From assembly GCA_944389525.1 (NCBI GenBank), contig CALXMR010000001.1, forward strand, positions 33,698 to 97,697: DNA of 64,000 nt, given 5' to 3'. Positions 15,573-63,928 of the stretch are shown piece by piece. The position numbers and the translations under genes were made by a program. Numbering within the stretch: the stretch's first letter is position 1; each line of letters opens with the position of its first letter. The DNA comes from an uncultured Alphaproteobacteria bacterium. GTDB lineage: Bacteria > Pseudomonadota > Alphaproteobacteria > Rs-D84. Under the pieces are notes generated by a model. The model searched no databases. It saw only the letters and a program-made list of their open reading frames with translations, and was not told where the DNA came from.

Positions 15573-15631
15573 TCTCTCTGCCTTTTGTGTTTTTATTTAT
15601 TATTTATGCCACACTGGGACAATTCATGAAA

Positions 15632-15654
15632 CGCCGCCCCAAACGGGGCCGGCG
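15632..15654 (-). terminator. possible terminator hairpin (cgccgccccaaacggggccggcg)
   Basis: A GC stem with an AAAC loop immediately downstream of the OMP gene stop at 15672. The T-tract is weak. Confidence 0.35.
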
Positions 15655-15671
15655 TACATCCAACCTGTTTA

Positions 15672-16871: not shown

Positions 16872-16933
16872 TGTAAAATTCTCCTTTTGTCAAAAATTAT
16901 ACCATAAAAAATCCTCATAACAAAGTAATAAAA

Positions 16934-16960
16934 GCAAAAACCCGCCATTTGGCGGGTTTT
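16934..16960 (-). terminator. intrinsic terminator (cccgcc-attt-ggcggg) flanked by A5 and T4
   Basis: A perfect 6 bp GC stem with a tetraloop, followed by a T-run in the minus-strand reading. It sits 10 nt downstream of the ftsK stop. Confidence 0.7.
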
Positions 16961-16969
16961 CTAATATTC

Positions 16970-19240
16970 CTATAATATATGTCGTTTGTTATTTGCATCA
17001 GGCGGGCTGACGATGCCTTCGGCCTCCATCCGTTCCATAAATCCGGCGGCCTTGTTATACCCTACCCCTAACCTGCGTTGGATATATGAAATTGTTGGTT
17101 TTTTATCACGCAACACATATTCTTTTGCCTGGGTATACAAGTCTGCATCTTTATCAGCCTTGCTGGCCACCGCTGGGGGCATTCCTGGGATTGCCGCGGC
17201 CACGCCGCCATCTTCCCCATCGGTCACACCTTCGGCATATTCTGGTGCGCCCTGGCCGCGCAAGAAATCCCCAACCCGGTTCATTTCTTCGTCTGATATA
17301 AACGCGCCATGTATACGAACCGGAACGCGTCCAGCCTCGCTAAACAGCATATCCCCGCACGATAACAACTGTTCTGCGCCCTTTTCACCCAGTGTTGTCA
17401 TAGAATCAATCCGACTGCGCGCCTGGAACGAAACGCGTGTCGGGAAATTCGCCTTGATAACGCCCGTAATTGTTGTTGCATCTGGTCGCTGGGTCGCCAT
17501 AACCAGATGGATACCGGCCGCGCGGGCCTTTTGTGCGATACGCTGGACACACGCCTCGACCTCTTTACGCGCCATACTCATCAGGTCGGCCACCTCGTCA
17601 ATAATAATGACAATATACGGCATATCCGACAAATCGACTTCTTGGGTTTCGAACAGTAATTCGCCCGTTTCTTCATCTGTACCAACCGCAACCTGGCGTG
17701 TTAATTTTTCACCGGCCGCGCGCTTTTGCCCAACGATTTCATTATAACTTTCTATATTACGGGCATTCACCGTTTGCAGTTGTTTATATCTATCTTCCAT
17801 TTCACGCACCGCCCATTTCAGTGCATTTACCGCCGCCGCTGGATCTAACTTTACAATTGGTGTTATCAGATGCGGGATATCATCCCAGAAACCAAAATCA
17901 ACACCCTTTGGATCAATGATTACCAGTTTGCACTTGTCTGGCGTAAAATGATAAACAATCGACATAATAATAGACTGCACAAACACCGATTTTCCCGATC
18001 CTGTACGACCCGCTATCAACATATGTGGCATTTTGGCCAAGTCATAATACATTGGATGCCCACCGATATCCACCCCCAAGGCCAACGGTATTTTGGATTT
18101 TGAATTTATAAATGTATCATTATCCACCAACGATTGGAAACGCACGGTCTGCCGCGTAATATTTACCATTTCAACACCAATCAGTTGCGTATTTGGAATA
18201 TGTGCAATACGAATATTTTCTGTGGCCATGGCACGCGTCATATCACTGACAGTCTTGCTGATATCGACCATACGCACACCACTGTCCGGCATAAATTCAT
18301 ACAGTGTCACAATTGGACCAGGACGAATACCAACCACCTTGCCGTGAACACCGTATTCGGCAAAATGTACCTCCATCGCAGATGCATTGCGTTTCAGTTC
18401 CGGTGTAATAATATTTTTACCAAAATTAGACCGTTCCAAAAACGCCGGATCCGGCAGTTCATATTCATGCACACCCCCACTGCGGCGCGATGCACGGCGA
18501 ACGCGTTTTTTTTCTGTGCGCCGCGCGACAGGTTTTTCATCTGGTTCTGTATCATCTGTATCTTCTTCATATTCTGCGTCTGCATCGTCATCTTCATCTG
18601 TATCTTCGGCGGGATATTCATTCATCGGCATCAAATGGAACACCGACAGAACCCAACGCACCCCGCGCCAGCATGCATACAGCGCGCTTTTTATATGTGC
18701 CCATTTTATATGTAACAACACAGATGCCAATGCCGCAAACACCAGTACCAGTGCCACCCCCACCATCACCGTCCAATTACCAATTAAACTGCTGACATCA
18801 GTTGCCGCCAACGCGCCAATCATACCACCAAATGATGATGTGGGGACAATCATACCAAATCCCGCCGCACCAACACACACGGCGACAAAGCACCGCAAAA
18901 AATTATATTCTGGGGCCGCATCCGTATCCCAATTCATCAACCACACCAACCCCCAACGCGCAACACATAAAATAAAGAACAATGCCGGAATAAAACCGAT
19001 TACAAACCTTAATCCGCCAACTATATTACCCATTATTGACTGATTACCAAATGTGCTGGCCGCCGCAACCCCATCCAGGTTCGGATTAAAAAGCACCAAT
19101 GCCACCGCTGCCCACAGTGCGATTACCAGCATCGCGCCCCCGCACACGCGTTTTGACAATGCCTTTAACGCACCAGAAACACTTTCCGGCAAAAAACTAG
19201 ATTTCTTTTCCATCCGACATATTTTATCACAAAAAAGCAA
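16970..19240 (-). CDS. ftsK: DNA translocase FtsK
   Basis: N-terminal TM segments, an acidic linker, Walker A GRTGSGKSV, and the gamma-domain winged helix (ISYIQRRLGVGYNKAAGFMERMEAEGIV). Confidence 0.9.
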   Translation of the reverse strand: MLFCDKICRMEKKSSFLPESVSGALKALSKRVCGGAMLVIALWAAVALVLFNPNLDGVAAASTFGNQSIMGNIVGGLRFVIGFIPALFFILCVARWGLVWLMNWDTDAAPEYNFLRCFVAVCVGAAGFGMIVPTSSFGGMIGALAATDVSSLIGNWTVMVGVALVLVFAALASVLLHIKWAHIKSALYACWRGVRWVLSVFHLMPMNEYPAEDTDEDDDADAEYEEDTDDTEPDEKPVARRTEKKRVRRASRRSGGVHEYELPDPAFLERSNFGKNIITPELKRNASAMEVHFAEYGVHGKVVGIRPGPIVTLYEFMPDSGVRMVDISKTVSDMTRAMATENIRIAHIPNTQLIGVEMVNITRQTVRFQSLVDNDTFINSKSKIPLALGVDIGGHPMYYDLAKMPHMLIAGRTGSGKSVFVQSIIMSIVYHFTPDKCKLVIIDPKGVDFGFWDDIPHLITPIVKLDPAAAVNALKWAVREMEDRYKQLQTVNARNIESYNEIVGQKRAAGEKLTRQVAVGTDEETGELLFETQEVDLSDMPYIVIIIDEVADLMSMARKEVEACVQRIAQKARAAGIHLVMATQRPDATTITGVIKANFPTRVSFQARSRIDSMTTLGEKGAEQLLSCGDMLFSEAGRVPVRIHGAFISDEEMNRVGDFLRGQGAPEYAEGVTDGEDGGVAAAIPGMPPAVASKADKDADLYTQAKEYVLRDKKPTISYIQRRLGVGYNKAAGFMERMEAEGIVSPPDANNKRHIL

Positions 19241-19262
19241 ATAATGTTAGTTATACTGCATA

Positions 19263-19964
19263 TTATTTTGCAATATCTGCGCCATGATGTTTCAGTGCAG
19301 CCTTGGTCAAATCTGCCACCGCCATACCGATAAATGCACCTAAAATAACATCAGACGGCCAATGCGCCCCCGCGCATACGCGCGATACACCAACAAGAAT
19401 CGCCAGCGACCATGTAAACCACTTTATCCGCGGCGCTAACAGCCCCAGCATCACCAACCCTGCAAAAGACGCCACCGTATGCCCAGACGGCATTGAATTA
19501 AACGCCCATTCAAACGATGGTGGGAAAAATCCGGTCATACCCAATGCCTCGTAAAATACGGGACGCGCGCGACCGATAAATACTTTTAAAAACCACCCCA
19601 GCGCACTGGCCGCAACCACAGATGTCAAAACAAATATTGCATAACTATTTCTGACCTTGTTCCATCCATCTTTACAGAACACCAGTAAACTAAATTTATT
19701 TTTATCGCCCCTGATACGCGGTTTTTCTATTGCCGCCTTTTTAATATAAAATACTAACAAAACCACCGCCGAAACAATAATCCACATTTCCGCGCAAAAC
19801 AGTTTTTCAAACACGTGCCGAAACAGTAAACAATCAAAATTACGCAAGAATAAATACAGCGGCTTGTCCAACCAGCAAATTCCCACCAGTACCAGTGCGG
19901 CTGTAATCACCGCACCCCATGCCATCCACTTCCATTTAATTTTATTATCCTTGGTCAAGAACAT
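19263..19964 (-). CDS. PAP2 family phosphatase (PgpB / undecaprenyl-diphosphatase-like)
   Basis: PAP2 motifs KxxxGRARP, PSGH and SRVCAGAHWPSD, with multiple TM helices. Confidence 0.75.
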   Translation of the reverse strand: MFLTKDNKIKWKWMAWGAVITAALVLVGICWLDKPLYLFLRNFDCLLFRHVFEKLFCAEMWIIVSAVVLLVFYIKKAAIEKPRIRGDKNKFSLLVFCKDGWNKVRNSYAIFVLTSVVAASALGWFLKVFIGRARPVFYEALGMTGFFPPSFEWAFNSMPSGHTVASFAGLVMLGLLAPRIKWFTWSLAILVGVSRVCAGAHWPSDVILGAFIGMAVADLTKAALKHHGADIAK

Positions 19965-19986
19965 ATTATTTCCCTATTTTTCTGTA

Positions 19987-21495
19987 TCACTCTGCTGTCA
20001 CCAGTCTGTTATAAACCTTGCCATCTGTTAATATTTTAACCGCGACTGCCGCCGCCAGCGCGTCTTCGTCTGCACCACTGGTAATCACTGGGCAACCACG
20101 GCGAACCACATCTGCATCGATTTCATCATCTTGGTTAAAATCCTGGGCATTAAAATCATTATTTATAACATTCAAGAAAAATGCATCTTGCTGGTTACTG
20201 GACCGAATATTAGACAGGCACACAATCGGAAAAATTCCACGACCATCGATGTTGCGCCCACTGCCCGTCTTGATTGATTTGTTCAATAATTCCAACGCAC
20301 CACCATTGGCCAAATCTATACGCGTTGCGATTCGCGCGGCCCCGGCCGTTGGCGTTCCCACCAACACCCCACGCGCATTTTCATATAACGCGGCGACTAC
20401 CGCTTCGGCTGTGCCACGGGTCATATTCGACATCAAAACAACGATTGGCGCATCTGTAACTGCATCGCCCCCAGGGATAACCTCTACCTCGTCCATGGCG
20501 GTTTCAACGATTCGCATAACAGGCCGCGCCCCAATAAACAGCCCTGCCAATTTTGCCGCAGCCCGTTCATCATCACCTGTGGCCGCACGCATATCCAATA
20601 TGATACCAGATACATCAGGATATTTTGCCAACGCCTCGTTAATAATGGCGGCGGCATTATCAGACACACGATGCACCACAATTTCCAATATTGCCCCATT
20701 ATCAGAATTTGTACGATGCACAATATCTGTATCTGCCAACACAATTGACGCACGGCGCAAAACAACATCGCGCGCACCCGCCGGCGTCAACAGTTTCATT
20801 TTTGATGTTCCAGAATTAAACCCATTCATCACAGATTCTAATTCCGCATCCGACATCTGGGCAACCACCCGACCATTTATACCAGAAATTAAATCACCCG
20901 CACGCACCCCCGCGGTATCAGCCGGCGATCCTTTGACAACACCATGCACCCGCCAATTACCACGCGCATCACGCGCCCCCGTCAGGCCGACACTGGTCAA
21001 CAGCCGTCCATCTTCGGCAATTTCTGCGGCACGCGAATATATATACCGGCCATTTTCATCAATCCCGCGCATTAAACTGTCCACAACCAATTGGTACATT
21101 TCGCTGGTTGATGCATGACGCAACACCGGGTCATTCGCACGCAATTTTAAAACCAACGCTGTTGTAATTTCCCCAAACGCATCCCAGTCCTTGTCTGCCG
21201 GGCGCGGATAATTTGCAATGATTGCATCCCGCCATACCAACACAACCCGTTCATCGGTGGCCGCGATATGCGCATTTGGATTTAAACTTTCCAGGCTTTC
21301 AATCGCAACATTAATATTTTTACCGCCCCACTTTACACCGTCTAACTTTTCATAAATATCGGCAAAGGTTGCAGAAACATCAAAAACATTTAATCCATCT
21401 TGCACAGGTTCATCTTCAAAGAACAAACTATCTGCGCACGCCGGCATTGCCACAGCGGCTAAAAACATCCATGCAACGAATTTTATCATTCTCAT
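19987..21495 (-). CDS. ctpA: S41 family carboxyl-terminal processing protease with PDZ domain
   Basis: Signal peptide, a PDZ segment (GVVKGSPADTAGVRAGDLISGING), and the S41 catalytic region (ILDMRAATGDD..). Confidence 0.75.
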   Translation of the reverse strand: MRMIKFVAWMFLAAVAMPACADSLFFEDEPVQDGLNVFDVSATFADIYEKLDGVKWGGKNINVAIESLESLNPNAHIAATDERVVLVWRDAIIANYPRPADKDWDAFGEITTALVLKLRANDPVLRHASTSEMYQLVVDSLMRGIDENGRYIYSRAAEIAEDGRLLTSVGLTGARDARGNWRVHGVVKGSPADTAGVRAGDLISGINGRVVAQMSDAELESVMNGFNSGTSKMKLLTPAGARDVVLRRASIVLADTDIVHRTNSDNGAILEIVVHRVSDNAAAIINEALAKYPDVSGIILDMRAATGDDERAAAKLAGLFIGARPVMRIVETAMDEVEVIPGGDAVTDAPIVVLMSNMTRGTAEAVVAALYENARGVLVGTPTAGAARIATRIDLANGGALELLNKSIKTGSGRNIDGRGIFPIVCLSNIRSSNQQDAFFLNVINNDFNAQDFNQDDEIDADVVRRGCPVITSGADEDALAAAVAVKILTDGKVYNRLVTAE

Positions 21496-42705: not shown

Positions 42706-43028
42706 TTCATCATTTTTCTTTCCCACCACACGGCAATCGCAGGCACCAAGAATAAAATCACACCGGCCAACCCCCACATTGCCAATGTACCAACGGCATA
42801 AACATAAAATACTGGTGCCGATACCCCGGTCAATAACACCCCCATAAATATAAACCCGGGAACAAATGTCAATAACCATACCAGCAATACTAAAACAGTA
42901 TTCACCACAAAGGCGCACATCAATGTACGCTGTATCGACAGCAATTTCATATTATGAATTTCCACCCAATCTGTTTTCATATTGCACCCCTTTTGTTCAT
43001 CATAATGATTATACCATAAATCAGACAA
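42702..43028 (-). CDS. small 2-TM membrane protein, unknown function
   Basis: 108 aa with two hydrophobic helices. It starts 2 nt after the ruvC stop, so it is co-transcribed with yebC-ruvC. Confidence 0.5.
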   Translation of the reverse strand: MSDLWYNHYDEQKGCNMKTDWVEIHNMKLLSIQRTLMCAFVVNTVLVLLVWLLTFVPGFIFMGVLLTGVSAPVFYVYAVGTLAMWGLAGVILFLVPAIAVWWERKMMK

Positions 43029-43030
43029 TA

Positions 43031-43507
43031 TTAAAATTTGAATCTGCTCATATTCGCGTGTGCCAATGCAATTGCAATCGCATCACTTTCATCTGCTGTT
43101 TTTGGTTTTGCCGCCGGCAACAAAATTCGCACCATTTTATACACTTGCTCTTTATCCGCATGCCCCGCCGATGTCAGCGCTTTTTTTATAACATTTGGTT
43201 CATATTCAAAAACAGGTATATCGCGATTTGCCACCGCCACAATTGCCGCCGCGCGTGCATGCCCCAACGCCAGTGTTGTTTGCGGATTTTTATTTACGAA
43301 TGTAATTTCAATGCTGCACGCATCTGGCGAAAATTTATCACACAATTCATCCACCCCACGGAAAATCGTGGCCAAGCGCGCCGGCAATGGTAATGTGGCC
43401 TTTGGCAGAATAACCCCACTGGCAACATAGTGCCGCGCACCACCATTTGAATCAATTATGGCCCACCCCGTATGTAACAGTCCTGGGTCAATTCCTAAAA
43501 TTCGCAT
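43031..43507 (-). CDS. ruvC: crossover junction endodeoxyribonuclease RuvC
   Basis: MRILGIDPGLLHTGWAII.., the catalytic D/E residues, and the expected 158 aa length. Confidence 0.9.
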   Translation of the reverse strand: MRILGIDPGLLHTGWAIIDSNGGARHYVASGVILPKATLPLPARLATIFRGVDELCDKFSPDACSIEITFVNKNPQTTLALGHARAAAIVAVANRDIPVFEYEPNVIKKALTSAGHADKEQVYKMVRILLPAAKPKTADESDAIAIALAHANMSRFKF

Positions 43508-52671: not shown

Positions 52672-54279
52672 ATGCATATGAACAGAATTTTTGGATTTTT
52701 GGCATTGCTGTTCATCGCTGGATGTGCCGGCGATGCCCCCGACCATACAGATTGGTTCAGTGAATATGGCACACTGGAAACCGGTACCCCGGTACAAATG
52801 CAATACGGTTCACCCGATATGCAAATGGGCGTGCCGTCTGATAATTTGATTGGCGCCCCTGTGCACAGGATGGCGGTATTGTTACCGACCAGTGGCCCCA
52901 ACGCGAATGTCGGCAATGAAATCCGCACATCTGTTGAAATGGCGGTATTACAGAACGCGCCGCAAAATCTGTCTGTGTCATTTTATGATACGGCATCCGA
53001 TACAAACGCGATGAATGCGGCATTGGCTGACAACCCGGCGATAATCATCGGCCCAGTATTTTCAAACGATGCACGCACATTGCGTGATATAAAGCCTGCA
53101 ACCACCCCAGTACTGTCATTCACATCAGATGCCACGGCGGTCGGTGACGGTGTTATGTCTGTGGCCCTGTTACCCAAGAATAGTATAGAAGCAATTATCC
53201 AAGAAATGCAGGCCGACAAAATCAGTGAATTTATAATCATCGCCCCCGATGACGCATCTGGCCACCTGATGGCGGGCGCGGCAGACACGGCCGCCCAGAT
53301 ATACGGTCTGCCCGTATCTGGGATATTCTATTACACACCGCATGATACAGAATCAATCAAGAACACCGCGATGGATGCATCAATGAACGCGGCCCGCACG
53401 GCGGCAAACAATCGTGCCCGCGCGGTATTATCCGATATTCTGACCGCAGAGCAGTTAAATGTATTGGAAAAATCATCACTGACCATACAACTGGACAGAA
53501 TATCAAAATCAGAAACATTGGGCAAACTGCCTTATAACGCCATATTATTCTTGGGTGACGGCAACGACACAGAAACATTGGCGTCATTTTTGCGCTATTA
53601 CGGCGTTGCCGCGCGTGATGCCCGCTTTTACGGCACCGCGTTATGGGATGGTTCCGACATAACATCAGACATAACGATGGCAGGCGCAAAATATGCCACC
53701 TTGCCTGACCTGCCACCATCGTTTGTATCGTTATATGAACGGATATCTGGACGCATACCTGGCCGTATGGCGGCCCTGGGCTATGACGCAACAAACATGG
53801 CAATCGGCATGATATATTCACAGAAATCAGACGCGGCATACTTGCTGGACCCCAGTGGATATGCCGGTGTAAACGGCCTGATGCGTTTGAATCCCACGGG
53901 CGAAAACGAACGCGGTCTGCGCATTGTTCAACTGACTGGCAACGGCACCGTGCAAACCGTGCGCGATGCCCCGGCAAACTTTATGGTACCCGTATATCAT
54001 ATAGAGCAGCGAAAAATCAAACCTGCTGAATCAATGGAACTGGAAACCCCGGGCATTGACCCAGACGATTATATAACAATACCTGTGCGGTTCCGGGATA
54101 AATATGAATCTGAAACATACGGCGCGCACATCACCGCCCCAGAAACACCCAGTGCAGCTGATGTGATAACCATCCTGCCCGAAGATGACAGTGATATAAT
54201 CATATCGCCTGATTTTGAACCCGTTGCACTGGAATCCGTGAACAAAACCTATATCGACAGCGTGGAAATAACTGAATAA
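52672..54279 (+). CDS. LpoA-like lipoprotein (penicillin-binding protein activator family; periplasmic-binding-protein fold)
   Basis: A lipoprotein signal (MNRIFGFLALLFIAGC), a Leu/Ile/Val-binding-protein-like domain, and divergent placement from rsmI, as with E. coli yraL/yraM (rsmI/lpoA). Confidence 0.5.
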   Translation: MHMNRIFGFLALLFIAGCAGDAPDHTDWFSEYGTLETGTPVQMQYGSPDMQMGVPSDNLIGAPVHRMAVLLPTSGPNANVGNEIRTSVEMAVLQNAPQNLSVSFYDTASDTNAMNAALADNPAIIIGPVFSNDARTLRDIKPATTPVLSFTSDATAVGDGVMSVALLPKNSIEAIIQEMQADKISEFIIIAPDDASGHLMAGAADTAAQIYGLPVSGIFYYTPHDTESIKNTAMDASMNAARTAANNRARAVLSDILTAEQLNVLEKSSLTIQLDRISKSETLGKLPYNAILFLGDGNDTETLASFLRYYGVAARDARFYGTALWDGSDITSDITMAGAKYATLPDLPPSFVSLYERISGRIPGRMAALGYDATNMAIGMIYSQKSDAAYLLDPSGYAGVNGLMRLNPTGENERGLRIVQLTGNGTVQTVRDAPANFMVPVYHIEQRKIKPAESMELETPGIDPDDYITIPVRFRDKYESETYGAHITAPETPSAADVITILPEDDSDIIISPDFEPVALESVNKTYIDSVEITE

Positions 54280-54306
54280 AAAATGTCCCAAACGGGACAT
54301 TTTTTA
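54277..54306. terminator. bidirectional intrinsic terminator (gtccc-aaac-gggac with A6/T6)
   Basis: It lies between the convergent LpoA-like gene (+) and the cupin gene (-). Confidence 0.7.
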
Positions 54307-54681
54307 ACACGCATCAGCATCGGCAAAACCAAATTGGGTCAGCGAATTTTCGCGCGCCTGGATACAAATAAATTGCATCTCGCCTGCCCCCGTATTTTCA
54401 ATTGTACGCGCCGCACCAGTCGCAATACGAACCGCACTGCCCGCCTTAACTGGAACTTGTTCACCATCAACCGTAATTATACCTGTACCAGATAAAATAA
54501 TATAAACTTCTTCATTTTGATGATGCACATGATTAAACGGAACCTTGAAACCCGCCGGCACAGAGTTTATCGACACTTCGCAACTGGTCAAATTCAACGC
54601 ATCGTGCAAAAATACTTTGCCGTTTTCACGCTTTGCAATTTCATCCATTGAACCAAAATCAGATTTAGTATATTTTGACAT
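54304..54681 (-). CDS. cupin domain protein
   Basis: 125 aa with the two-motif cupin core (..PFNHVHHQNEEVYIILSGTG.. / ..GSAVRIATGAARTIENTG..). Confidence 0.65.
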   Translation of the reverse strand: MSKYTKSDFGSMDEIAKRENGKVFLHDALNLTSCEVSINSVPAGFKVPFNHVHHQNEEVYIILSGTGIITVDGEQVPVKAGSAVRIATGAARTIENTGAGEMQFICIQARENSLTQFGFADADAC

Positions 54682-54864
54682 TCATTTCCCCTTTTTTGTT
54701 AAAAACTGTGCATGAAATATATGGATAAAAAATCATTTTGTAAAGTACGCACAAAAAAGTAAGCATACATACCTATTGGTAATTTTTGCCGGATTTCGTA
54801 CATATATACGATGAAAAAAATTTTTATAATTGTCTTTTTTGTATATTACTGTATAATTTGAAGT

Positions 54865-55200
54865 ATGAAAAATAAAACCAAAGAAATTATATCTGCACAA
54901 TGCCCCGTTGCACTGACAGTATCACTAATCGGCAACAAGTGGAAATTAATGATTATGCGCAATTTACTGATGCGACCATGGCGATTTAATGAATTGCAAA
55001 AAAGCATTGGCATCATCAGTCAAAAGGTATTGGTCGATAACCTGCGCGCAATGGAAACAGATGGTCTGGTAATTCGTACCGTATTCCCCGCGGTTCCACC
55101 ACATGTTGAATATTCACTGTCTGAAATTGGTCAATCAATGCGCCCAATATTAACCGCCATGGAAAAATGGGGCACCGAATATCAGAAAAAGCATTTATAA
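54865..55200 (+). CDS. HxlR family transcriptional regulator
   Basis: 111 aa with a winged HTH (CPVALTVSLIGNKWKLMIMRNL..F.EL). It is divergent from the cupin gene, a typical regulator/target pair. Confidence 0.75.
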   Translation: MKNKTKEIISAQCPVALTVSLIGNKWKLMIMRNLLMRPWRFNELQKSIGIISQKVLVDNLRAMETDGLVIRTVFPAVPPHVEYSLSEIGQSMRPILTAMEKWGTEYQKKHL

Positions 55201-55202
55201 AA

Positions 55203-55238
55203 CAAAAAACCGACCATTCGGTCGGTTTGTGTTTTTTA
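55203..55238. terminator. intrinsic terminator (ccgacc-attc-ggtcgg + T-rich)
   Basis: A hairpin directly after the hxlR-family stop, followed by gttttttattt. Confidence 0.65.
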
Positions 55239-55289
55239 TTTAATATATAATCATTCTGTTACTATCACAAATATATAAACACATCACAT

Positions 55290-55838
55290 TTACCTAACAT
55301 CAGATTTATTTACGACTTCGATACCAGACTCAAAACTTTCAACAAAATGCCAACCATCGTCATCCAAAGTAAAATGAAAACATTGACAATTTTTAATATG
55401 CCCAACACGCATTCCCGCCGCCCAACACAACGCACGCGTCACGCCACCATGCGATGATATGGCAATGTCTGAATATTTGCTTTGCGCAACGATACGCCCC
55501 AACGCGCCACTAATGCGCTTGAAATTATTATCTATGCGATGCTGTGCATCAACATCATCGGTGTACCAAAATCCGAATGCAACCTCGATAAAATCATCTT
55601 CGATAACAATCGGTGCCGCCGGATGATATTCACCCACAATTTCGGCCGTACGCACCGCCCGTGGCAATGGCGAAGAATAAAACGCATCTATTTTTTTATC
55701 ACGCAAAAATTCGGCCAATCGTTCGGCCTGTTTAACACCATCAGACGTCAAATACGCATCTGTACGATTGCCCTCTCTTGCGCCTTCGGCGTTTTCATTT
55801 GTTTGTCCATGCCGAAAGAAATAAAAATTCCGCACCAT
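55290..55838 (-). CDS. histidine phosphatase family protein (phosphoglycerate mutase-like)
   Basis: A RHG catalytic motif (FYFFRHGQTNEN) and a downstream SHGG segment. Confidence 0.7.
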   Translation of the reverse strand: MVRNFYFFRHGQTNENAEGAREGNRTDAYLTSDGVKQAERLAEFLRDKKIDAFYSSPLPRAVRTAEIVGEYHPAAPIVIEDDFIEVAFGFWYTDDVDAQHRIDNNFKRISGALGRIVAQSKYSDIAISSHGGVTRALCWAAGMRVGHIKNCQCFHFTLDDDGWHFVESFESGIEVVNKSDVR

Positions 55839-55859
55839 ATTGCACCCCCACAGGAACAA

Positions 55860-56444
55860 CTATTTATTCACATATTCCGAACGCAATTTGGACCACATCA
55901 TATTATCGTATAATTTTCCATCTGAATACACACCACTTTGACGTGCAATACCGTCCAAATGAAATCCAGATGATTTTATTGAATTGGCTGAACGCACATT
56001 ATCCTGGCTGCATTGCCGAACTATACGATTGGCGCCCAAATTTTCAAACGCAATACGTTCTATCTCGTCCGATGTTTCACGCGCAAACCCATGTCCCCAT
56101 GCCGAACGAACCAACCATACGGTCGCCATTTGCAATGTCCGCGTTGCATCATCATAAAAAAACAACCGCCGATATCCAATAAATTTATCATTTTGAAACA
56201 AGTATAATGCAACACCATTATCTGCCGTCCAATCTGATTCACGTTGCATAAATTTCAATACTTCATCAGCCGATTTTGGAACGATGTTATCAACGCCAAT
56301 TGAATTAAAATAAAAATCAGATGGATTTTCATCTTTTATTGCATTAAAAATTATTTCCGCGTTTTCATGCGTCACATCCAGTTGCCGCATTTCTAAACGC
56401 GCTGTTTTTATAACCCGTGGCAATTGTTTTATTGGATTTACCAT
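55860..56444 (-). CDS. GNAT family N-acetyltransferase (RimJ/RimL-like), second paralog in window
   Basis: 194 aa with a GNAT core (..WGHGFARETSDEIERIAFENLGANRIVRQCSQDNVRSANSIKSSGF..). Confidence 0.7.
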   Translation of the reverse strand: MVNPIKQLPRVIKTARLEMRQLDVTHENAEIIFNAIKDENPSDFYFNSIGVDNIVPKSADEVLKFMQRESDWTADNGVALYLFQNDKFIGYRRLFFYDDATRTLQMATVWLVRSAWGHGFARETSDEIERIAFENLGANRIVRQCSQDNVRSANSIKSSGFHLDGIARQSGVYSDGKLYDNMMWSKLRSEYVNK

Positions 56445-56560
56445 TACCTGTCTCCTATTTTACCAACAATCCAGATTTTACTAAAAAAACGCCGGTTTTA
56501 CAATAACCCAGTTTGGCAAATTACGAACCTGTGGTTCTCATCTCACCACTCCATCACAAA

Positions 56561-56592
56561 ATAAAAATGCCCCATTCGGGACATTTTGATTT
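56561..56592. terminator. intrinsic terminator (tgcccc-attc-gggaca with A/T tracts)
   Basis: It lies downstream of the GNAT gene stop and adjacent to the tRNA-Tyr 3' fragment. Confidence 0.55.
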
Positions 56593-56611
56593 TGGTGGGA
56601 GTGGGTGGATT
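56592..56611 (-). repeat. 20-nt duplicate of the tRNA-Tyr 3' end (att-like direct repeat)
   Basis: ttggtgggagtgggtggatt is identical at 56592..56611 and 56761..56780. The latter is the true tRNA 3' end (...aatccacccactcccacca). Confidence 0.8.
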
Positions 56612-56727: not shown

Positions 56728-56758
56728 ATAAATACCCGCCATTCGGCGGGTATTTATA
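56728..56758 (-). terminator. intrinsic terminator (cccgcc-attc-ggcggg) immediately 3' of tRNA-Tyr
   Basis: A perfect 6 bp GC hairpin with AT-rich flanks, 4 nt beyond the tRNA CCA end. Confidence 0.65.
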
Positions 56759-56761
56759 CTT

Positions 56762-56848
56762 TGGTGGGAGTGGGTGGATTCGAACCACCTCAGGCTTAAG
56801 CCAACAGATTTACAGTCTGCCCCGGCTCTCCAACTCCGGCGCACGCCC
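56762..56848 (-). tRNA. tRNA-Tyr (anticodon GTA), class II with long variable arm, CCA encoded
   Basis: On the minus strand: GGGCGTG-CG-CCGG-AGTTGGAGAG-CCGG-G-GCAGA-CTGTAAA-TCTGT-TGGCTTAAGCCTGA-GGTGG-TTCGAAT-CCACC-CACTCCC-A-CCA. One C-U mismatch at acceptor pair 4-69. Confidence 0.8.
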
Positions 56849-56930
56849 AATCTCGTCTTCCGCCCGCCTGCGCCAGCGGCTTCGGTGGGCAATGGATTTT
56901 CAGCCCTTGCTGCGCTGCGGTGAAAATCCC

Positions 56931-56948
56931 TGGTGCGGGCAGCGGGAA
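56931..56948 (-). repeat. 18-nt duplicate of the tRNA-Gly 3' end (att-like direct repeat)
   Basis: tggtgcgggcagcgggaa is identical at 56931..56948 and 57045..57062, which is the true tRNA-Gly 3' end. Confidence 0.8.
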
Positions 56949-57044
56949 ACCGCGCGTATAAAAACACAACGAGTTGCGTTATTAGCAACGAGTTGATGTT
57001 TGCATCGCAAGGTTACCCAACTCATCGGCACCCCATCTCGTTTC

Positions 57045-57119
57045 TGGTGCGGGCAGCGGGAATCGAACCCGCATTTCAAGCTTGGAAGGCTTGCATACTA
57101 GCCTTTGTACTATGCCCGC
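57045..57119 (-). tRNA. tRNA-Gly (anticodon TCC), CCA encoded
   Basis: On the minus strand: GCGGGCA-TA-GTAC-AAAGGCTA-GTAT-G-CAAGC-CTTCCAA-GCTTG-AAAT-GCGGG-TTCGATT-CCCGC-TGCCCGC-A-CCA. The acceptor stem pairs perfectly. Confidence 0.9.
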
Positions 57120-57193: not shown

Positions 57194-58069
57194 CTAGCGA
57201 ATACCATGTATGATATCTTCCATTTCCAACAAGAAATCCATATCATACCCGCGGGCTTTTAAACGCTGCAACATCAAATGTGCTGCCTCTGCGACACCCA
57301 GGCTTTTGCATATTTCAACAACAGTTACAATTTCATCACGGTTCATTTTATCGGTTGGCATTAATGCAACCGCGACCCCTAATTCACGCAGTGCGGCGCG
57401 CATATACGCCCCACGATGATCCCGGCAACCGTATTCAAATAATACAGCGTATGTTTTGGCATTATTCAAAAAATCGCCATAATAATACGCCGCTGTATTA
57501 ATATTTTTCATAACACGATTTTCAATCGTTTCGCAAATTTTTTCATCAGAATACAAATATTCAATCGATGTCATTTCACTATTATCGTCCTCATATACTG
57601 CACGCAATCCATCCGCAATCGCCTGTTTGCGTGCGGCCAAATCCTGGAACAATTGGGCATTTTCTGGGCATCCGCGCTGTGCCAATACTGTATATATTTC
57701 CGCAGAATTTTGTTGATCATACCAATTCATCTCATCATCCGAGACTATACTTTTCAACAGTGTATCTTCAATAACCGCACAGGCGGGGCGAATGGCCAAA
57801 TCGGTATCTTCTGATTCCACACTGGCAACATCTGGCACAACCGTATCGTCTGGCACACTTGTCGGTATTTCTGTGGCAACTGCCGCTGCTGGTGTTGTTG
57901 CAACAGGGGCATTTTTGGCACCAATTATCCCACCATCATACAGCACCCATGCCGCCGCACCAACCAAGATTAATACAACCAACACAGTCCATAACCGCAC
58001 CCGCCGTGCATGACGTTTTGTATTGCTGCGTGATGTATTTGATGTTTTTTCTTTCATTTTCCCCCCCAT
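57194..58069 (-). CDS. membrane-anchored hypothetical protein (paralog family member 1; Cys-bracketed helical modules)
   Basis: An N-terminal basic segment plus TM anchor (RLWTVLVVLILVGAAAWVL) and a P/T/V-rich linker. Its modules C..IE..L..Y..QN..Y..LA..GC.ENA and its C-terminus DMDFLLEMEDIIHGI are shared with 58760..59479. Confidence 0.55.
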   Translation of the reverse strand: MGGKMKEKTSNTSRSNTKRHARRVRLWTVLVVLILVGAAAWVLYDGGIIGAKNAPVATTPAAAVATEIPTSVPDDTVVPDVASVESEDTDLAIRPACAVIEDTLLKSIVSDDEMNWYDQQNSAEIYTVLAQRGCPENAQLFQDLAARKQAIADGLRAVYEDDNSEMTSIEYLYSDEKICETIENRVMKNINTAAYYYGDFLNNAKTYAVLFEYGCRDHRGAYMRAALRELGVAVALMPTDKMNRDEIVTVVEICKSLGVAEAAHLMLQRLKARGYDMDFLLEMEDIIHGIR

Positions 58070-58083
58070 CTGGTTTATTTAAC

Positions 58084-58767
58084 TTATAGTCCTGGTATTG
58101 CACTGCCATCATTCAGTGGCGCATGGCATTCACCATCCCCATCGTCTGGACAGCACATAAATTCCAGATTACCTGTATCCCGGAATGTTTCACCATCACA
58201 ACATCCGAACTTATTCGGCGCATCCCCATTCGGGCACAGACCGGCCGCCATATTTGCCACCGCTGTTTCAGTATCAATTACCACCGCTGATTTATCGATG
58301 TCATCACCGCAATCAGCACTGTATTGATTGCGCAACGGCTGTAATTCGTCATCTGTGGCCCCGCCCGATTCCAGCGCACTGATATCCGCCGTCAATCCAT
58401 CGCACAATGTGCGCCGCGCCGTCAGATAATTTGTCAGCACATTGTATGCAGTCACGGTTTCCACCGCCGTGGTTACAGGCACCGCCGTATCTGTTGTTGC
58501 CACCACAGACATAGTTGATACCCGACCAGACGTTCGCCGCCCTGCGGCCGCACGCGCACAACTGGTCCGATATTGATTTTGCAAATTGGCCAATTCTGTC
58601 GCCGTTGCATCATCAGGATTCGCAATCGCCGTCAATTCGCCAATACGATTACTAATTGCTGTACAATCAACCGCCGCCCTATCTGCGACCGTGCCATCTG
58701 CCGCCACGGCCACCCCCAGTGGCATACAAATCAAGAATGCAAAAAACCCAACTAGACTTTTATTCAT
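58084..58767 (-). CDS. secreted Cys-rich repeat protein
   Basis: A cleavable signal peptide (MNKSLVGFFAFLICMPLGVAVAADG). It has two internal ~40 aa repeats, each bracketed by Cys (DCTAISNRIGELTAIANPDDATATELANLQNQYRTSCA / LCDGLTADISALESGGATDDELQPLRNQYSADCG). The C-terminus is a CC..CC..C cluster. Confidence 0.55.
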   Translation of the reverse strand: MNKSLVGFFAFLICMPLGVAVAADGTVADRAAVDCTAISNRIGELTAIANPDDATATELANLQNQYRTSCARAAAGRRTSGRVSTMSVVATTDTAVPVTTAVETVTAYNVLTNYLTARRTLCDGLTADISALESGGATDDELQPLRNQYSADCGDDIDKSAVVIDTETAVANMAAGLCPNGDAPNKFGCCDGETFRDTGNLEFMCCPDDGDGECHAPLNDGSAIPGL

Positions 58768-59479
58768 TTATTATCTGTTCCATTTGTAAGATAAAATCAG
58801 TTGCTGGATCAACCAAGCGTTCAATTTTATCCAAAAACTCCCTGGCTTCTTGTTGCATATCCAGTTTTTTAAATGTATCTATTACGATTTCTGCATCACC
58901 TTCGCCCATATCTTCTTCGGGTTGTAATGCGGATGCAATTTCCAATTCACGCAACGCCAAAGCCTTGTACATATCTGCATTTTCGGCACATCCCTTGTCC
59001 GCCAGTGAACTGTAAGTATCGGCGTTTTGCAAATGTTTCCAATATTCTGGGCTGTCTTCGGAATACAGACGCTGGACCAACAGTTTTTCAATACGCATGC
59101 ATGTCGACATAATTTCTGGCCGCGATGCAGGTGTATCCACACTGGCCACTGAGGCGGGCGCATCGCGTTCAATTATAACCAGACGCCCGGCGCATCCACT
59201 TGTATACGCGGCGTTTAATTCGTTCAAGATTTTTGCATCTTCGGCATTTGCGCCGCGTTGCGTAATGGACACAATTTCATTTGCGATTGCATCACATTGT
59301 TCAATGCTCAACACATCGCGCGCGACCGGTTCGCCCCTGTATGTCAGGCCCAACATCAATCCACACACAAACAGCCCCGCCAACGCAATTGCACCCCAAA
59401 CCTTGTGCGATGTACTGCAACAGTTAATTGGACATGGCGCCGGCTGCTTTTTTGCCGTTGTCTTTTTTGTTTTTTGCAT
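58760..59479 (-). CDS. membrane-anchored hypothetical protein (paralog family member 2)
   Basis: A TM anchor (GAIALAGLFVCGLMLGL). The module EQCDAIANEIVSITQRGANAEDAKILNELNAAYTSGCAG resembles the repeat of the secreted protein. The STCMRIEKLL..YSEDSPEYWKHLQNADTYSSLADKGCAENADMYKAL module and the C-terminal TDFILQMEQIINE parallel member 1. Confidence 0.55.
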   Translation of the reverse strand: MQKTKKTTAKKQPAPCPINCCSTSHKVWGAIALAGLFVCGLMLGLTYRGEPVARDVLSIEQCDAIANEIVSITQRGANAEDAKILNELNAAYTSGCAGRLVIIERDAPASVASVDTPASRPEIMSTCMRIEKLLVQRLYSEDSPEYWKHLQNADTYSSLADKGCAENADMYKALALRELEIASALQPEEDMGEGDAEIVIDTFKKLDMQQEAREFLDKIERLVDPATDFILQMEQIINE

Positions 59480-60240: not shown

Positions 60241-60990
60241 TTAATTCCTTTCAATATTATGTTGCAATTTTTTTTGTTTCTTTATTTCATCCAGTATAAT
60301 TTTTATTCTGTCCGGTTGAATAAACACGTGTGGCCCGTCACCAATTAAATTTATAAATTCTTCTTTACGTTGTTCTTTTCTTATCCGCGCCAAATCGTGT
60401 TTATTGTCGATATAATATTTTATATCCATGGGCGCGTATCCATAACTGACACCGTCCAAAATTTCAAAAAAATCTTGCAGATTTTTATTATCCCAATTTA
60501 TATCCAACAATTCTGGATTTAATTCAATCGTCTGTGACAATAAATCAGCAACCCGCGCCACCACAGTACTGCGTTGTTGTTGAATATAATCCGCCAATTG
60601 ATTTTTGTCCGCATCAGACAAATTTTTAACCGGACCACACATTTTATCAATCAGATTCAACTTTTCTTCTTCCGTTATTGGCACCATATTTTTATCTTCC
60701 TGTGCCATCCGTTCCATCCCGGCTATCATAGATTCCGCATACCCGCGGGGATTGGTTATACGCCCAACATCGAACGTATAAAAGAAAAACAATGTCCGCA
60801 CTTGTTCTTCGAATTTCTGTGGCGTTACATTATTTGGATATTTATATTCATGGAATAATTTTATTGGTAAATGGATACCACGCGCTGTTAAAAAATCCTG
60901 ATAATTTTTTGCGCTGGACGACCAATGACCACCAGGCACAACGGTATTATAAACCAGCGTTCTTAAAACTAATTCTAAATTTTTATTCAT
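60241..60990 (-). CDS. hypothetical protein (249 aa) inserted between lolC/E and lolD
   Basis: There is no signal peptide or TM and no recognisable family. It overlaps the lolC/E stop by 8 nt and ends 8 nt before the lolD start. Confidence 0.5.
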   Translation of the reverse strand: MNKNLELVLRTLVYNTVVPGGHWSSSAKNYQDFLTARGIHLPIKLFHEYKYPNNVTPQKFEEQVRTLFFFYTFDVGRITNPRGYAESMIAGMERMAQEDKNMVPITEEEKLNLIDKMCGPVKNLSDADKNQLADYIQQQRSTVVARVADLLSQTIELNPELLDINWDNKNLQDFFEILDGVSYGYAPMDIKYYIDNKHDLARIRKEQRKEEFINLIGDGPHVFIQPDRIKIILDEIKKQKKLQHNIERN

Positions 60991-62239
60991 TTCTTAAAAC
61001 CTCAACCGGGTCTGTGCTGGCGGCCTTCCACGCGGGATACAGTGTCGCCAAGAATGCCAACAACACGGCAATTAACGCGATTCCAACAACCTCGCCTATA
61101 ACTAATTTAGATGGTAATTCTGACAAATAGTATAATTCAGCGGGAAATAAATCGCGCCCTGTTGCCCACTGAAAGAATTGTCGTATTGGTTCAATATATA
61201 TCGCAATCAGAACACCAAACACCGTTCCGAAAAACGCACCCAAAACACCAATACTGGTCCCAGACAAAATAAATATCTTCATCATGGAACGGCGCGACAC
61301 ACCAAATGTACGCAACACGGCAATATCTTTGGATTTATCTTTGACCAGCATGACCAAACTGGACACGATATTAAACGCCGCCACAATTACTATCAGCATT
61401 AATATTAAAAACATAACATTCGATTCAACCTGTAACGCACCAACAAACCCACGATTTAAATCACGCCAATCACGAACAACAAATCCATTCGGCAACAGAT
61501 TTGCCAACGCATCACGAACCGCAACCGTATCTTCGGGATTATGCAAGAACAAATCAATATGCGTAACGGCACCCGGAATATTTAAATACTTTTGTGCGGT
61601 TTCCAGCGGCATAAATATATACCCAGAATCATATTCATACATCCCCATAAAGAACGAAGACATAACCGGATACGCCATAATACGCGGCATCGAACCAAAC
61701 GGCGTTGGTGTTGCCGCATTCGCCGACACCAATGAAATATTATCACCCATTCCCACACGCAACGCACGCGTCAGCGATGCCCCCGCAACCAATTCGCCAT
61801 CATGGATTTTATCCAACGGCTTGCCATATATTTTTGTACCACTTTCAACCTTGGCCGCCAGGTCAGACATCTTTATCCCGCGAATCATTGCGCCCGTATT
61901 ATTACCATTTGCAGTGGCCATAACCTGCCCTTCGGCGATGGGGACAATACCTGTGGTATTTGCGGCAACGACTTTGTTCTGTTTCATTTTATCAATCAAG
62001 AAATCATAGTCCGCGATTGCACCATCTTGGTGATAGACAACAACATGCCCATTCATTCCGATAATGCGCGACAACAGCGTATCATGAAATCCGCCCATCA
62101 CCGACATTACAACAATCAGTGTTGCCACCCCCAATGTAATACCAACCAGCGACACCCACGAAATCACAGAACCAAATCCGCGCTTTTTCGCGCCTAAATA
62201 TCTGAATGCAATTTTGCGTTCCAGCCTTGAAAACAACAT
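60983..62239 (-). CDS. lipoprotein-releasing system permease LolC/LolE family
   Basis: The N-terminus IAFRYLGAKKRGFGSVISWVSLVGITLGVATLIVVMSVMGGFH is the LolC/E hallmark. It has a MacB-like periplasmic domain and a 4-TM FtsX fold. Confidence 0.8.
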   Translation of the reverse strand: MLFSRLERKIAFRYLGAKKRGFGSVISWVSLVGITLGVATLIVVMSVMGGFHDTLLSRIIGMNGHVVVYHQDGAIADYDFLIDKMKQNKVVAANTTGIVPIAEGQVMATANGNNTGAMIRGIKMSDLAAKVESGTKIYGKPLDKIHDGELVAGASLTRALRVGMGDNISLVSANAATPTPFGSMPRIMAYPVMSSFFMGMYEYDSGYIFMPLETAQKYLNIPGAVTHIDLFLHNPEDTVAVRDALANLLPNGFVVRDWRDLNRGFVGALQVESNVMFLILMLIVIVAAFNIVSSLVMLVKDKSKDIAVLRTFGVSRRSMMKIFILSGTSIGVLGAFFGTVFGVLIAIYIEPIRQFFQWATGRDLFPAELYYLSELPSKLVIGEVVGIALIAVLLAFLATLYPAWKAASTDPVEVLRNE

Positions 62240-62251: not shown

Positions 62252-63589
62252 TTAATCTTCTTCGCTTAAAAACGCACGCAGCGCATCACCCACCAGTTGG
62301 TCTGGATTAACCGATTGCACATCTGTTTCTTCGACAATGGATATTAAACGCGGCGACATAAACACAACCAGTTCCGCAAACGGACTGATTAATGTTTCAG
62401 GCGTTGTAACAAACGAATGTGTCGGAATACCAATTATTACATAATTATCACCAATACTAGACGGTATATTAAACGATGACAATTCACCATTACTGGTGCG
62501 TAAAACAATTTTCGCATCGATTTTATCAGTACCACCAAAATCACCATATGTACCAGTTGCACCGATTATCAAATCTGTTTCCAATCTGTCTTCTTTGCTG
62601 CATTGCCCGATATCAAAGCGCGACTGCCATCCATTTGGGATGATAAACTGTCCTTGGGAAATCAAGACAACATTCGCCTGTTGCGACAAAAATTCTTGCA
62701 GTGTTTTTGTATTTATTTCTGGTCCAACAACCAACGCGCGACCAACCACACCCGGGATAGACATCTTGATATTTTTATCACCAAACGCCGGTAATAAATT
62801 CATCCATATAATTGGGTTATCTGTACGCGGATACACACGATATACATCAATATCCCATGCCAGCATGTATTTTTTAGACGCAAATTCAGATATTATTTTT
62901 GTCACTTCGCGTTCTGTTTGATAATTACCTTCGAATACAACGGTTTTATCCTGCCAATCGACCAGCAAGTTGCGCATATCTGCACCATGCATCGCATCCA
63001 GCAATGCCATGATTATATTTTCATTCTTGGGCATTTTTATCATCCACTTTGCCCGATTATCCAGATGAATTTCGGCGTTTTCTGCATCGTACGAATAATA
63101 CGCGCGGCCCATTTTCGCCATCAATTCAACCGTATCAGCCAAATTTCCTGATGACACCGTCCCAGAAATTTTATCGGTCAATTCACCATCTTCGATAACA
63201 GAAATATCTGTACCTTCTAGTAACTTGTCCAACGCCTCTTTAACACTCAACTGTTTAAATTCGTAATCCGAGACCACTAATTCAGGCAACGCATCCCCCA
63301 CCCCCAGACGCACCATTTCTATTTTTTCATGTGGCACAACAGATACAACATTTTGATTATCCCAATCAACCGTGCATCTTTTTGGCAGTTCTATGGAAAA
63401 CCGTTGTGCGGTATCTGTGGTCAGGGCGGCCTTTTTCGGAAAGATTGGCACAGAATTTTCATCAATCACAAAATTTTCAACAACATTTATTGTGTCGTAT
63501 TGGGGAACTTGTTCTTGACGCTGCTGATTGGCGCATGCCACCACCGTCACAGAAAACATAGCCAACAAAAAAAGATTTATTTTTTTCAT
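62252..63589 (-). CDS. lipoprotein of unknown function with secretin-N/STN-like N-terminal modules
   Basis: A lipobox (..SVTVVAC). The segment QLSVKEALDKLLEGTDISVIEDG resembles the STN/secretin N0 signature, and a second KH-like module follows (IIMALLDAMHGADMRNLLVDWQDKTVVFEG). The C-terminal beta-rich region lacks the canonical secretin GG motif. Confidence 0.4.
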   Translation of the reverse strand: MKKINLFLLAMFSVTVVACANQQRQEQVPQYDTINVVENFVIDENSVPIFPKKAALTTDTAQRFSIELPKRCTVDWDNQNVVSVVPHEKIEMVRLGVGDALPELVVSDYEFKQLSVKEALDKLLEGTDISVIEDGELTDKISGTVSSGNLADTVELMAKMGRAYYSYDAENAEIHLDNRAKWMIKMPKNENIIMALLDAMHGADMRNLLVDWQDKTVVFEGNYQTEREVTKIISEFASKKYMLAWDIDVYRVYPRTDNPIIWMNLLPAFGDKNIKMSIPGVVGRALVVGPEINTKTLQEFLSQQANVVLISQGQFIIPNGWQSRFDIGQCSKEDRLETDLIIGATGTYGDFGGTDKIDAKIVLRTSNGELSSFNIPSSIGDNYVIIGIPTHSFVTTPETLISPFAELVVFMSPRLISIVEETDVQSVNPDQLVGDALRAFLSEED

Positions 63590-63601: not shown

Positions 63602-63928
63602 TTAGATATTCATTGCGCGTTCAAATTCTTCCAGTGTCATTTCGTATATTGGTTTTTGCGTTGGCGTAACCATCTCTTTGACGCGTTCATATTGCACACG
63701 AAACTTTTCAATCACCGCGGCGACATCGTCCGGCACAGATTGTTTTTTTGCATCCAACAACCTGCGCCCGTATTCATAAACAAATTCCAATGTATCTGCC
63801 GCAAAGAATCGCCCCGCATAATTTTCGGTTGCAATCCCGCCCTTTTGCACACAGATTGCCGACATCATCATCGTCATCTGGTTGTAAAAGTTTGCCAGTT
63901 TAATAAAGTTCTGAACCGTCAATGCCAT
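63602..63928 (-). CDS. hypothetical protein (108 aa)
   Basis: A coherent ORF heading the minus-strand run that includes the lipoprotein and lolCDE. No family recognised. Confidence 0.4.
   Translation of the reverse strand: MALTVQNFIKLANFYNQMTMMMSAICVQKGGIATENYAGRFFAADTLEFVYEYGRRLLDAKKQSVPDDVAAVIEKFRVQYERVKEMVTPTQKPIYEMTLEEFERAMNI

Follow-up and report, generated by a model that had tools for sequence, protein, structure and literature searches.

What are three adjacent genes of no recognizable family doing beside a pair of tRNA genes? They may have been brought there by an integrating element, or they may belong to the resident chromosome, and in either case one would like to know what their products could do. 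The locus lies in a stretch of 64,000 nucleotides (nt), called the window here, from an uncultured alphaproteobacterium of the Rs-D84 lineage (GenBank assembly GCA_944389525.1, contig CALXMR010000001.1, positions 33,698 to 97,697 of the forward strand). The three genes, P3, P2 and P1, follow one another on the minus strand and encode proteins with paired cysteines. A first-pass annotation, made from the letters alone, took them for a tandem family of surface or secreted proteins acquired or diversified at a tRNA integration site. The window's list of open reading frames (ORFs) confirms all three where that annotation had put them, with the start of P1 probably a few codons further in. These genes and their immediate neighbors are:

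58760..59479, minus strand: P3, 239 aa; ORF list, 57 homologs, conservation, AlphaFold2 (AF2) model and module hidden Markov models (HMMs)
58084..58767, minus strand: P2, 227 aa; ORF list and module HMMs
57194..58057, minus strand: P1, 287 aa (291 aa with the start at 58069); paralog of P3
59523..60254, minus strand: lolD, ABC ATPase (TIGR02211, E = 9.7e-74), 43 nt upstream of P3
57045..57119, minus strand: tRNA-Gly(TCC), 74 nt past the P1 stop codon, in the same place in most related loci
56762..56848, minus strand: tRNA-Tyr(GTA), on the same strand as the block, after tRNA-Gly

The answer to the question of origin is that all three are inherited core genes, native to this chromosome, and did not arrive as foreign DNA at the adjoining tRNA genes. 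The evidence also supports a lineage-specific, uncharacterized family of extracytoplasmic proteins with paired cysteines.

Conserved position, selection and composition

A gene for a membrane-anchored protein of the P3 kind, of architecture (H)B(B)C in the module notation given below, directly follows lolD, and one or two genes bearing the K module come next. This arrangement was found in 86 of the 87 loci fetched, the exception being one short contig that ends before the K gene. In all loci with recovered flanks lolD adjoins the P3-type gene, and much more distant family members still adjoin lolCE or lolD. The genes for tRNA-Gly and tRNA-Tyr usually come after the anchor and K pair in related loci. 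The extra B-B-C gene of the P1 type occurs only in the window's subclade, while other subclades have tandem duplicates of their own. Thus the presence/absence polymorphism beside the tRNAs that the acquisition idea called for is not seen: the P3/P2 pair keeps its place across relatives, and only P1, a tandem paralog, is confined to a clade.

The junctions within the block are tight. A ribosome-binding site, AGAGAGAGAGGTG, precedes the ATG of P3. The start of P2 overlaps the stop of P3 by 8 nt, and the same overlap recurs in the gene calls on related contigs. Between P2 and P1 the gap is 14 to 26 nt, according to the P1 start chosen. The start at 58057 (MKEK, 287 aa), four codons after 58069, is the most likely one, since it has a GGGGGG ribosome-binding site and agrees with homologs of 283–288 aa and with gene calls on related contigs.

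The codon and GC texture of the genes, once thought to differ from that of the flanking housekeeping genes, is ordinary. GC content, GC content at third codon positions (GC3) and synonymous codon usage of P1 and P3 fall within about one standard deviation of the window's 51 genes. P2 has a high GC content (z 2.3) with an ordinary GC3 (z 0.4); the difference is due to its amino-acid composition, in which Ala, Gly, Thr, Asp and Cys abound. No relatives of P1–P3 were found in phage and plasmid collections by tblastn.

The ratio of nonsynonymous to synonymous substitution rates (dN/dS) against close relatives is 0.10–0.23 for P1–P3 and 0.03–0.06 for lolCE and lolD, indicating that the three genes are under purifying selection yet fast-evolving. 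Large divergence is seen over longer distances: in a far clade P3 and P2 retain about 32% identity where LolCE retains 87%.

An integration hotspot on the 3′ side of the tRNA genes

The att-like footprints reported earlier at both tRNA genes do exist, as direct repeats of the tRNA 3′ ends:

56930..56948, minus strand: repeat of the tRNA-Gly 3′ end, exact over 19 nt, 114 nt downstream; copy of 57044-57062; att-like
56583..56611, minus strand: repeat of the tRNA-Tyr 3′ end, 29 nt at 90%, 169 nt downstream; copy of 56752-56780

The tRNA-Tyr repeat has an exact 19-nt core, and a strong terminator hairpin comes next, at 56564-56587. The tRNA-Gly repeat is absent in the sister strain at locus L093, whose P1 is 95% identical. 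Both repeat pairs enclose only short non-coding remnants. The spacer between the two tRNA genes ranges from 5 to 230 nt across genomes.

The stretch between the tRNA genes and lppC varies from genome to genome. In L093 an island lies directly after tRNA-Tyr (11284-20417, corresponding to about 54300-56560 of the window). It carries a serine recombinase, a resolvase, an HpaII restriction-modification system, two DNA methylases, an HATPase_c_3 protein and Fic. GNAT, histidine phosphatase, HxlR and cupin genes occupy this position in the window. A 25-nt palindromic, terminator-like hairpin (AAAAATGTCCC...GGGACATTTT) is present in two 88%-identical copies, at 54279-54303 and 56563-56587, and these bracket the strain-variable four-gene cassette.

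The integration hotspot is therefore real and located on the 3′ side of the tRNA genes, with P1–P3 on the 5′ side. The block is not cargo lying between a tRNA 3′ end and its repeat, does not vary between strains as such cargo would, and is not deviant in composition. The fixed place after lolD, together with repeats and variable cargo that lie 3′ of the tRNAs, speaks against acquisition or diversification at the integration site.

The membrane-anchored paralogs P3 and P1

The family is described by four modules: H, a Cys-closed hairpin; B, a Cys-bracketed three-helix unit; C, three C-terminal helices; and K, a six-Cys motif. Architectures among 325 family proteins include B-B-C, H-B-C, B-C, H-B-B-C, H-H-K, H-K and K.

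P3 has the architecture H-B-C, with a transmembrane (TM) helix at aa 23-47, H at aa 60-101, B at aa 124-187 and C at aa 190-239. An invariant Cys39 lies in the TM helix, C62 and C96 close H, and C127 and C164 bracket B. The hairpin maps as follows:

59177..59302, minus strand: H module of P3, two-helix hairpin with C62/C96, then the motif C-A-G-R

AF2 models of P3 and P1 were built on 44-sequence alignments. That of P3 has helices at 59-75 and 79-95, disorder at aa 97-125 and a helical domain at aa 126-238 with a predicted local distance difference test (pLDDT) score above 90; in this model B and C together form a TPR-like helical domain.

P1 has the architecture B-B-C. In the residue numbers of the 291-aa version, its TM helix is at aa 18-45, a linker disordered in the AF2 model at aa 49-90, B1 at aa 94-157 (C97, C134), B2 at aa 176-238 (C179, C215) and C at aa 241-288. 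P1 and P3 are homologous (BLASTP E = 8e-15; hhalign of the family profiles 99.5%, E = 1.3e-22). In both proteins a basic N-terminal tail leads into a single predicted TM helix, after which comes a low-confidence linker rich in Pro, Thr and Ala. The helical domains of the two models are TPR-like and confidently predicted, with pLDDT above 90. The basic tails place the N terminus in the cytoplasm. The AF2 models bear out the signal-anchor helix and linker of P1 and P3 that the first reading had proposed, and the P2 alignment bears out the signal peptide of P2.

Each H or B module contains exactly two Cys. The pair is invariant, one residue standing at the start of the first helix and the other just past the second, which is the open end of the hairpin; the two are 32–37 residues apart, at both ends of the helical hairpins. 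The number of extracytoplasmic Cys is even in 172 of 179 P3-like proteins.

A further set of conserved residues is found at the membrane. P3 orthologs conserve a cytoplasmic juxtamembrane motif, C-P-x-N-C-C-S-x-x-H-K (59402-59434, minus strand; aa 16-26), in which C21, S22, H25 and K26 are nearly invariant. Cys39 (59363-59365), within the TM helix motif L-F-x-C-G, is likewise invariant in P3 orthologs. P1 and the distant family members have neither the TM Cys nor the cytoplasmic Cys/His motif.

Two other identities were considered for P3. The sequence L-F-A-C-G beside lol genes suggested a lipoprotein. Of the 122 members that carry the motif, 76 have A, S or G directly in front of the conserved Cys and the others V, I, T, L, M or F, which is not a lipobox; this variability and a conserved cytoplasmic tail, unexpected for a cleaved signal peptide, led us to reject the lipoprotein reading. 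An anti-sigma factor was also rejected, as the cytoplasmic tail is short, at about 22 residues, and matches neither zf-HC2 nor an anti-sigma domain in Pfam.

P2 and the six-Cys K motif

P2 consists of a signal peptide followed by H-H-K. The signal peptide covers aa 1-23 and ends in AVA|AD. Hairpin 1 (aa 34-71, C35/C70) is followed by AAGRRTSGR and a linker rich in Thr, Ala and Val; hairpin 2 occupies aa 122-153 (C121/C153). The CC...CC...C cluster noticed at the C terminus belongs to a conserved motif of which 19 copies were aligned:

58114..58257, minus strand: K motif of P2, aa 171-218, six Cys

Its consensus is C-x(5-9)-G-CC-x2-E-x11-CC-x(5-6)-C-[FY/H]-x-P, and the C, G, CC, E, CC and C are invariant in the 19 copies. 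Orthologs of P2 across the order share one layout, with signal peptide, hairpin, A-x-G-R-R, an acidic or Pro-rich linker and K. The possibility that P2 is a lipoprotein was discarded, for the Cys within its signal peptide is not conserved among homologs.

Many genomes have an additional gene of 81–89 aa that encodes a TM helix and a K of a second subtype (PDENGCC..GEVYTDMG..GFNCCP), for example L004 9384-9638 and L001 8665-8934. It sits between the P2-type and P1-type genes, and elsewhere it is fused into P2 as H-K-K. This small gene is absent from the window.

Relatedness of the three proteins

Over their whole length P2 and P3 are only weakly similar (BLASTP E = 0.008; hhalign 9.3%, E = 0.0035). 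Since the whole-profile comparison was weak, a module-level HMM was used with real-ORF and shuffled decoys. The hairpin HMM was trained only on the Cys-bracketed hairpins of P3-type proteins. It picks up almost the whole P2 family, aligning in register with each of the two P2 hairpins, and its scores exceed those of all 740 shuffled P2 sequences. At E < 0.1 it finds 56 P2-type ORFs, half of which (28) are at E < 1e-3. Among 12,908 six-frame ORFs from the window and the 87 loci, only P3- and P2-type ORFs match, the best unrelated one having E = 2.8.

By these profile matches, the predicted H hairpin is all that P2 shares with P3. P1 and P2 have no direct similarity by BLASTP or hhalign. H and B were also considered as variants of one ancestral unit, an idea dropped when hhalign gave a probability below 1%. 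The initial view that all three proteins are related thus holds for P1 with P3, and for P2 with P3 in the hairpin only; it fails for P1 with P2. The Cys-bracketed pattern said to run through all of them is shared by P3 and P2, while the units of P1 are of a second type, not detectably related to the hairpin. No other family members were found within the window.

Two distant members are fusions, H-B-B-K (P0286) and B-C-K (P0302). They tie the anchored type and the K type together.

Distribution and host lineage

An exhaustive profile search against 1.84 billion representatives returned only 202 proteins at E <= 1e-3, of which the 150 listed are 66–346 aa long. Neither P1–P3 nor the K motif by itself has a usable match in Pfam, NCBIfam, PHROGs or PADLOC. 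In PADLOC no family was found at E <= 0.01, and in PHROGs only weak matches (E >= 0.005) over the TM and linker region of P1. The K motif alone matches nothing in Pfam and no PDB sequence at E <= 10. PDB sequence searches with the P1/P3-family, P2-family and K profiles gave nothing, or noise at E >= 0.09. The first-pass statement that the proteins are lineage-specific and of no recognizable family is well borne out.

Every organism name recovered for a relative is either Candidatus Enterousia or that of an uncultured alphaproteobacterium; these are metagenome-assembled genomes, and the guts sampled were those of humans, chickens, horses and ruminants. An identical copy of the locus is on a metagenome scaffold of 423,972 bp, and the one closed genome among the relatives has 958,618 bp. 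Enterousia is placed in the order Rs-D84, with genomes under 1 Mb; it lacks the tricarboxylic acid cycle, respiratory chains and standard transporters, is anaerobic and may depend on a partner (PMC12306168). Rs-D84/Enterousia is widespread in human and animal guts and is proposed to have many unexplained membrane proteins (PMC12306168). Besides LolCDE, the window encodes LptF/G, Lnt, MltA and SecDF-type genes; LptF/G, Lnt and MltA indicate that an outer membrane and a periplasm are present.

Proposed role and alternatives

A model is proposed in which P3 and P1, tethered to the membrane, act as periplasmic scaffolds that bind proteins, with the K-bearing protein as their partner, and in which the unit serves the envelope and is not mobile. 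We give this model an even chance of being right. P3 (H-B-C) and P1 (B-B-C) would be single-pass inner-membrane proteins with a cytoplasmic N terminus, and their helical-repeat domains would hang in the periplasm on flexible linkers. P2, with its signal peptide and H-H-K, would be exported as a soluble protein. The Cys pairs may form disulfide staples that stiffen the scaffolds, as suggested by their location at the open ends of hairpins and by the even extracytoplasmic Cys counts. The K-bearing protein would bind P3 and P1, and the unit of anchor and K would serve the cell envelope of the Rs-D84 lineage, being neither accessory nor mobile.

Several points weigh against this model. Binding between P3 and P2 is hypothetical. 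The presence of H in the anchor does not strictly go with its presence in the K protein at the detection threshold, which limits the comparison (loci with B-C plus H-K-K exist), so a hairpin-to-hairpin pairing is unsupported. Gene order is preserved all the way from uvrB to lppC, which makes adjacency to lolD weak evidence for a functional link. The staples are deduced from Cys placement, in a lineage without respiratory chains (PMC12306168). No Dsb gene was found among the 26 window proteins scanned, and a look at ten further window proteins for Dsb or LolA genes turned up neither, in a window too small for this to be conclusive. Foldseek searches of the PDB gave generic fold matches, the best at E = 0.05.

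The fast divergence of the genes and the repeated tandem duplication of both anchor and K genes would also fit factors for interaction with a partner or host. P2 and the K proteins would then be exported past the periplasm as adhesins or effectors, and P1 and P3 would present or release them. The proteins concerned are Cys-rich and secreted in a lineage proposed to be partner-dependent (PMC12306168), and secretion and immunogenicity are known of their nearest analogs, the Helicobacter cysteine-rich proteins (PMC1941758). However, P1 and P3 are predicted to be anchored in the inner membrane of a cell that has an outer membrane, which makes an effector or adhesin role unlikely for them. Gene-wide dN/dS of 0.10–0.23 reveals no positive selection at that resolution, the position is fixed across the clade and not strain-variable, and no secretion system is nearby. 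We regard such a function as unlikely.

The lolD neighborhood raises the question of whether LolCDE is assisted directly by the anchored TPR-like protein, alone or together with the K protein, for instance in passing on or taking up lipoproteins. This supposes that the periplasmic Lol components of the lineage are missing or divergent. With synteny extending over the whole region the adjacency is not specific. LolCE and LolD change several times more slowly than P3 and P2, an unusual disparity between a conserved machine and a partner obligatory to it, and no LolA/LolB similarity was found in Pfam, NCBIfam or PDB. A role as Lol accessory is thus a little less likely again. More speculative, and a shade more doubtful still, is the notion that anchor and K form a lineage-specific periplasmic arm of lipoprotein or outer-membrane biogenesis, or a tether between inner and outer membrane, replacing components lost or never present in these genomes of about 1 Mb, with K as an undescribed Cys-knot domain for ligand binding.

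The conserved thiols of P3 and K invite a chemical interpretation, in which the cytoplasmic CxxxCC..H and TM Cys of P3, like K's CC pairs, would serve redox chemistry or metal binding and not structural stapling. In its favor are the invariant Cys39, the nearly invariant C21, S22, H25 and K26, the six invariant Cys of K with two vicinal CC pairs, and an anaerobic lineage without respiratory chains (PMC12306168), in which it is hard to see how periplasmic thiols would be oxidized. But a CxxC motif is lacking, as is any fold of the thioredoxin or cytochrome type, a spacing of 32–37 residues at hairpin ends is the geometry of a structural staple, and both the TM Cys and the cytoplasmic motif are missing from P1 and from distant members. 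Thiol or metal chemistry as the role of the family is therefore quite improbable. Finally, delivery of the three genes by an element integrated at tRNA-Gly or tRNA-Tyr, for which the att-like repeats at both tRNAs, the recombinase-bearing island of the sister strain and the confinement of P1 to one subclade might be cited, is hardly credible, because the genes lie 5′ of tRNA-Gly with the repeats and variable cargo 3′ of the tRNAs, P3 and P2 have a fixed place, the block has native codon usage and no phage or plasmid relatives, and P1 is paralogous to the P3 type already resident there.

Comparison with known families

The proteins closest in kind to the proposed scaffolds are the Helicobacter cysteine-rich proteins (HcpA, HcpB, HcpC), made of Sel1-like repeats that are each disulfide-bridged (PMC1941758). 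Both groups have extracytoplasmic alpha/alpha repeats with a Cys pair per repeat, are restricted to a lineage and comprise several paralogs (PMC1941758). In P1 and P3 it is the B modules that form helical repeats, each with one Cys pair. Unlike Hcp, P1 and P3 are membrane-anchored and are accompanied by a hairpin module and a six-Cys partner protein. They have no Sel1 or TPR match in Pfam at E <= 1 and no PDB match at E <= 10, even though Hcp structures have been solved. The Cys of their B modules are 36–37 residues apart and bracket a helix-loop-helix, whereas the spacing inside an Hcp repeat is much shorter. The B-module pair is invariant, with one Cys where helix 1 begins and the other in the turn past helix 2, and the repeats are not Sel1-like by sequence.

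Periplasmic TPR scaffolds (PilF/PilW, TadD, the TPR domain of BepA, BamD) are also among the closest analogs, the likeness to P1 and P3 being one of fold class. The AF2 models predict stacked antiparallel helix pairs for P1 and P3, which is the hallmark of an alpha-solenoid; by sequence no TPR or Sel1 family was found for them in Pfam (E <= 1) or NCBIfam. Nor do they belong with LolA/LolB, whose fold is an unclosed beta-barrel with a helical lid: no match was found in Pfam or NCBIfam, and the P1 and P3 models are all-helical.

K has about 45 residues with six Cys in the order C, CC, CC, C, vicinal CC pairs and turns rich in Gly and Pro. It resembles the Cys ladder of the granulin type. Granulin has twelve Cys, and the resemblance is a lead and not a membership. 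The family is an undescribed, lineage-restricted variant of the disulfide-stapled helical-repeat envelope proteins, with the staples themselves predicted.

The lol operon and other genes of the window

Upstream of lolD the remaining genes of the operon are:

60241-60990, minus strand: u249, 249-aa ORF of unassigned family, between lolC/E and lolD
60983..62239, minus strand: lolC/E-type permease (TIGR02212, E = 1.5e-122, above the curated cut-off)
62252..63589, minus strand: lipo445, 445-aa lipoprotein of unassigned family, lipobox VVAC; operon gene 2
63602..63928, minus strand: u108, 108-aa protein of unassigned family; operon gene 1

From the block the order is lolD, u249, lolC/E, lipo445 and u108, with gaps or overlaps of at most 14 nt, so the block forms the distal end of the lol operon. 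A promoter-like site at 63985-63956 lies upstream of u108.

The lipo445 and u108 genes head the operon in every related locus with a recovered upstream flank. Across full-length related loci their identities are 73–86% and 61–88%, respectively. They have no family match in Pfam or NCBIfam and no PDB match, and are further conserved uncharacterized proteins attached to lolCDE. The u249 gene overlaps its neighbors by 8 nt and 14 nt and has the lowest GC content of the region (0.355, z -2.9). Some close relatives have it and others lack it, and in a distant lineage its place is taken by a NUDIX gene. This position looks like a genuine insertion site within the lol operon.

The loci L094 and L008 are equidistant from the window in u108, lipo445, lolCE, lolD, P3 and P2. 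At P1 they differ, with 88% and 79% identity to the window and synonymous divergence (dS) of 0.43 and 0.75, respectively. Such a difference between loci equidistant elsewhere suggests recombination at the P1 end of the block.

Elsewhere in the window, a continuous 679-aa ORF (8105-10144, minus strand) contains YbeY endoribonuclease (aa 31-144) and Lnt (aa 192-634) domains; it represents a fused gene or else two genes with no stop codon between them. A 175-aa ORF with 14 Cys (42854-43393, plus strand) has no Pfam match at E <= 0.001. The same is true of two minus-strand ORFs of 243 and 399 aa (14841-15596 and 15672-16889), both with signal-peptide-like N termini.

Significance

At present the evidence describes one more uncharacterized, lineage-specific envelope family and not a new principle. 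A false lead has been removed, in that the adjoining integration hotspot is real but the block is no part of its cargo. A hypothetical trio has become a defined family, with a grammar of four modules, a topology, a fold class, an invariant pair of anchor and K, and a fixed address after lolCDE. This basis is sufficient for profile models and for the design of binding and localization experiments. As core, lineage-specific envelope proteins, the members of the family are obvious candidates for the peculiarities of the Rs-D84 cell surface.

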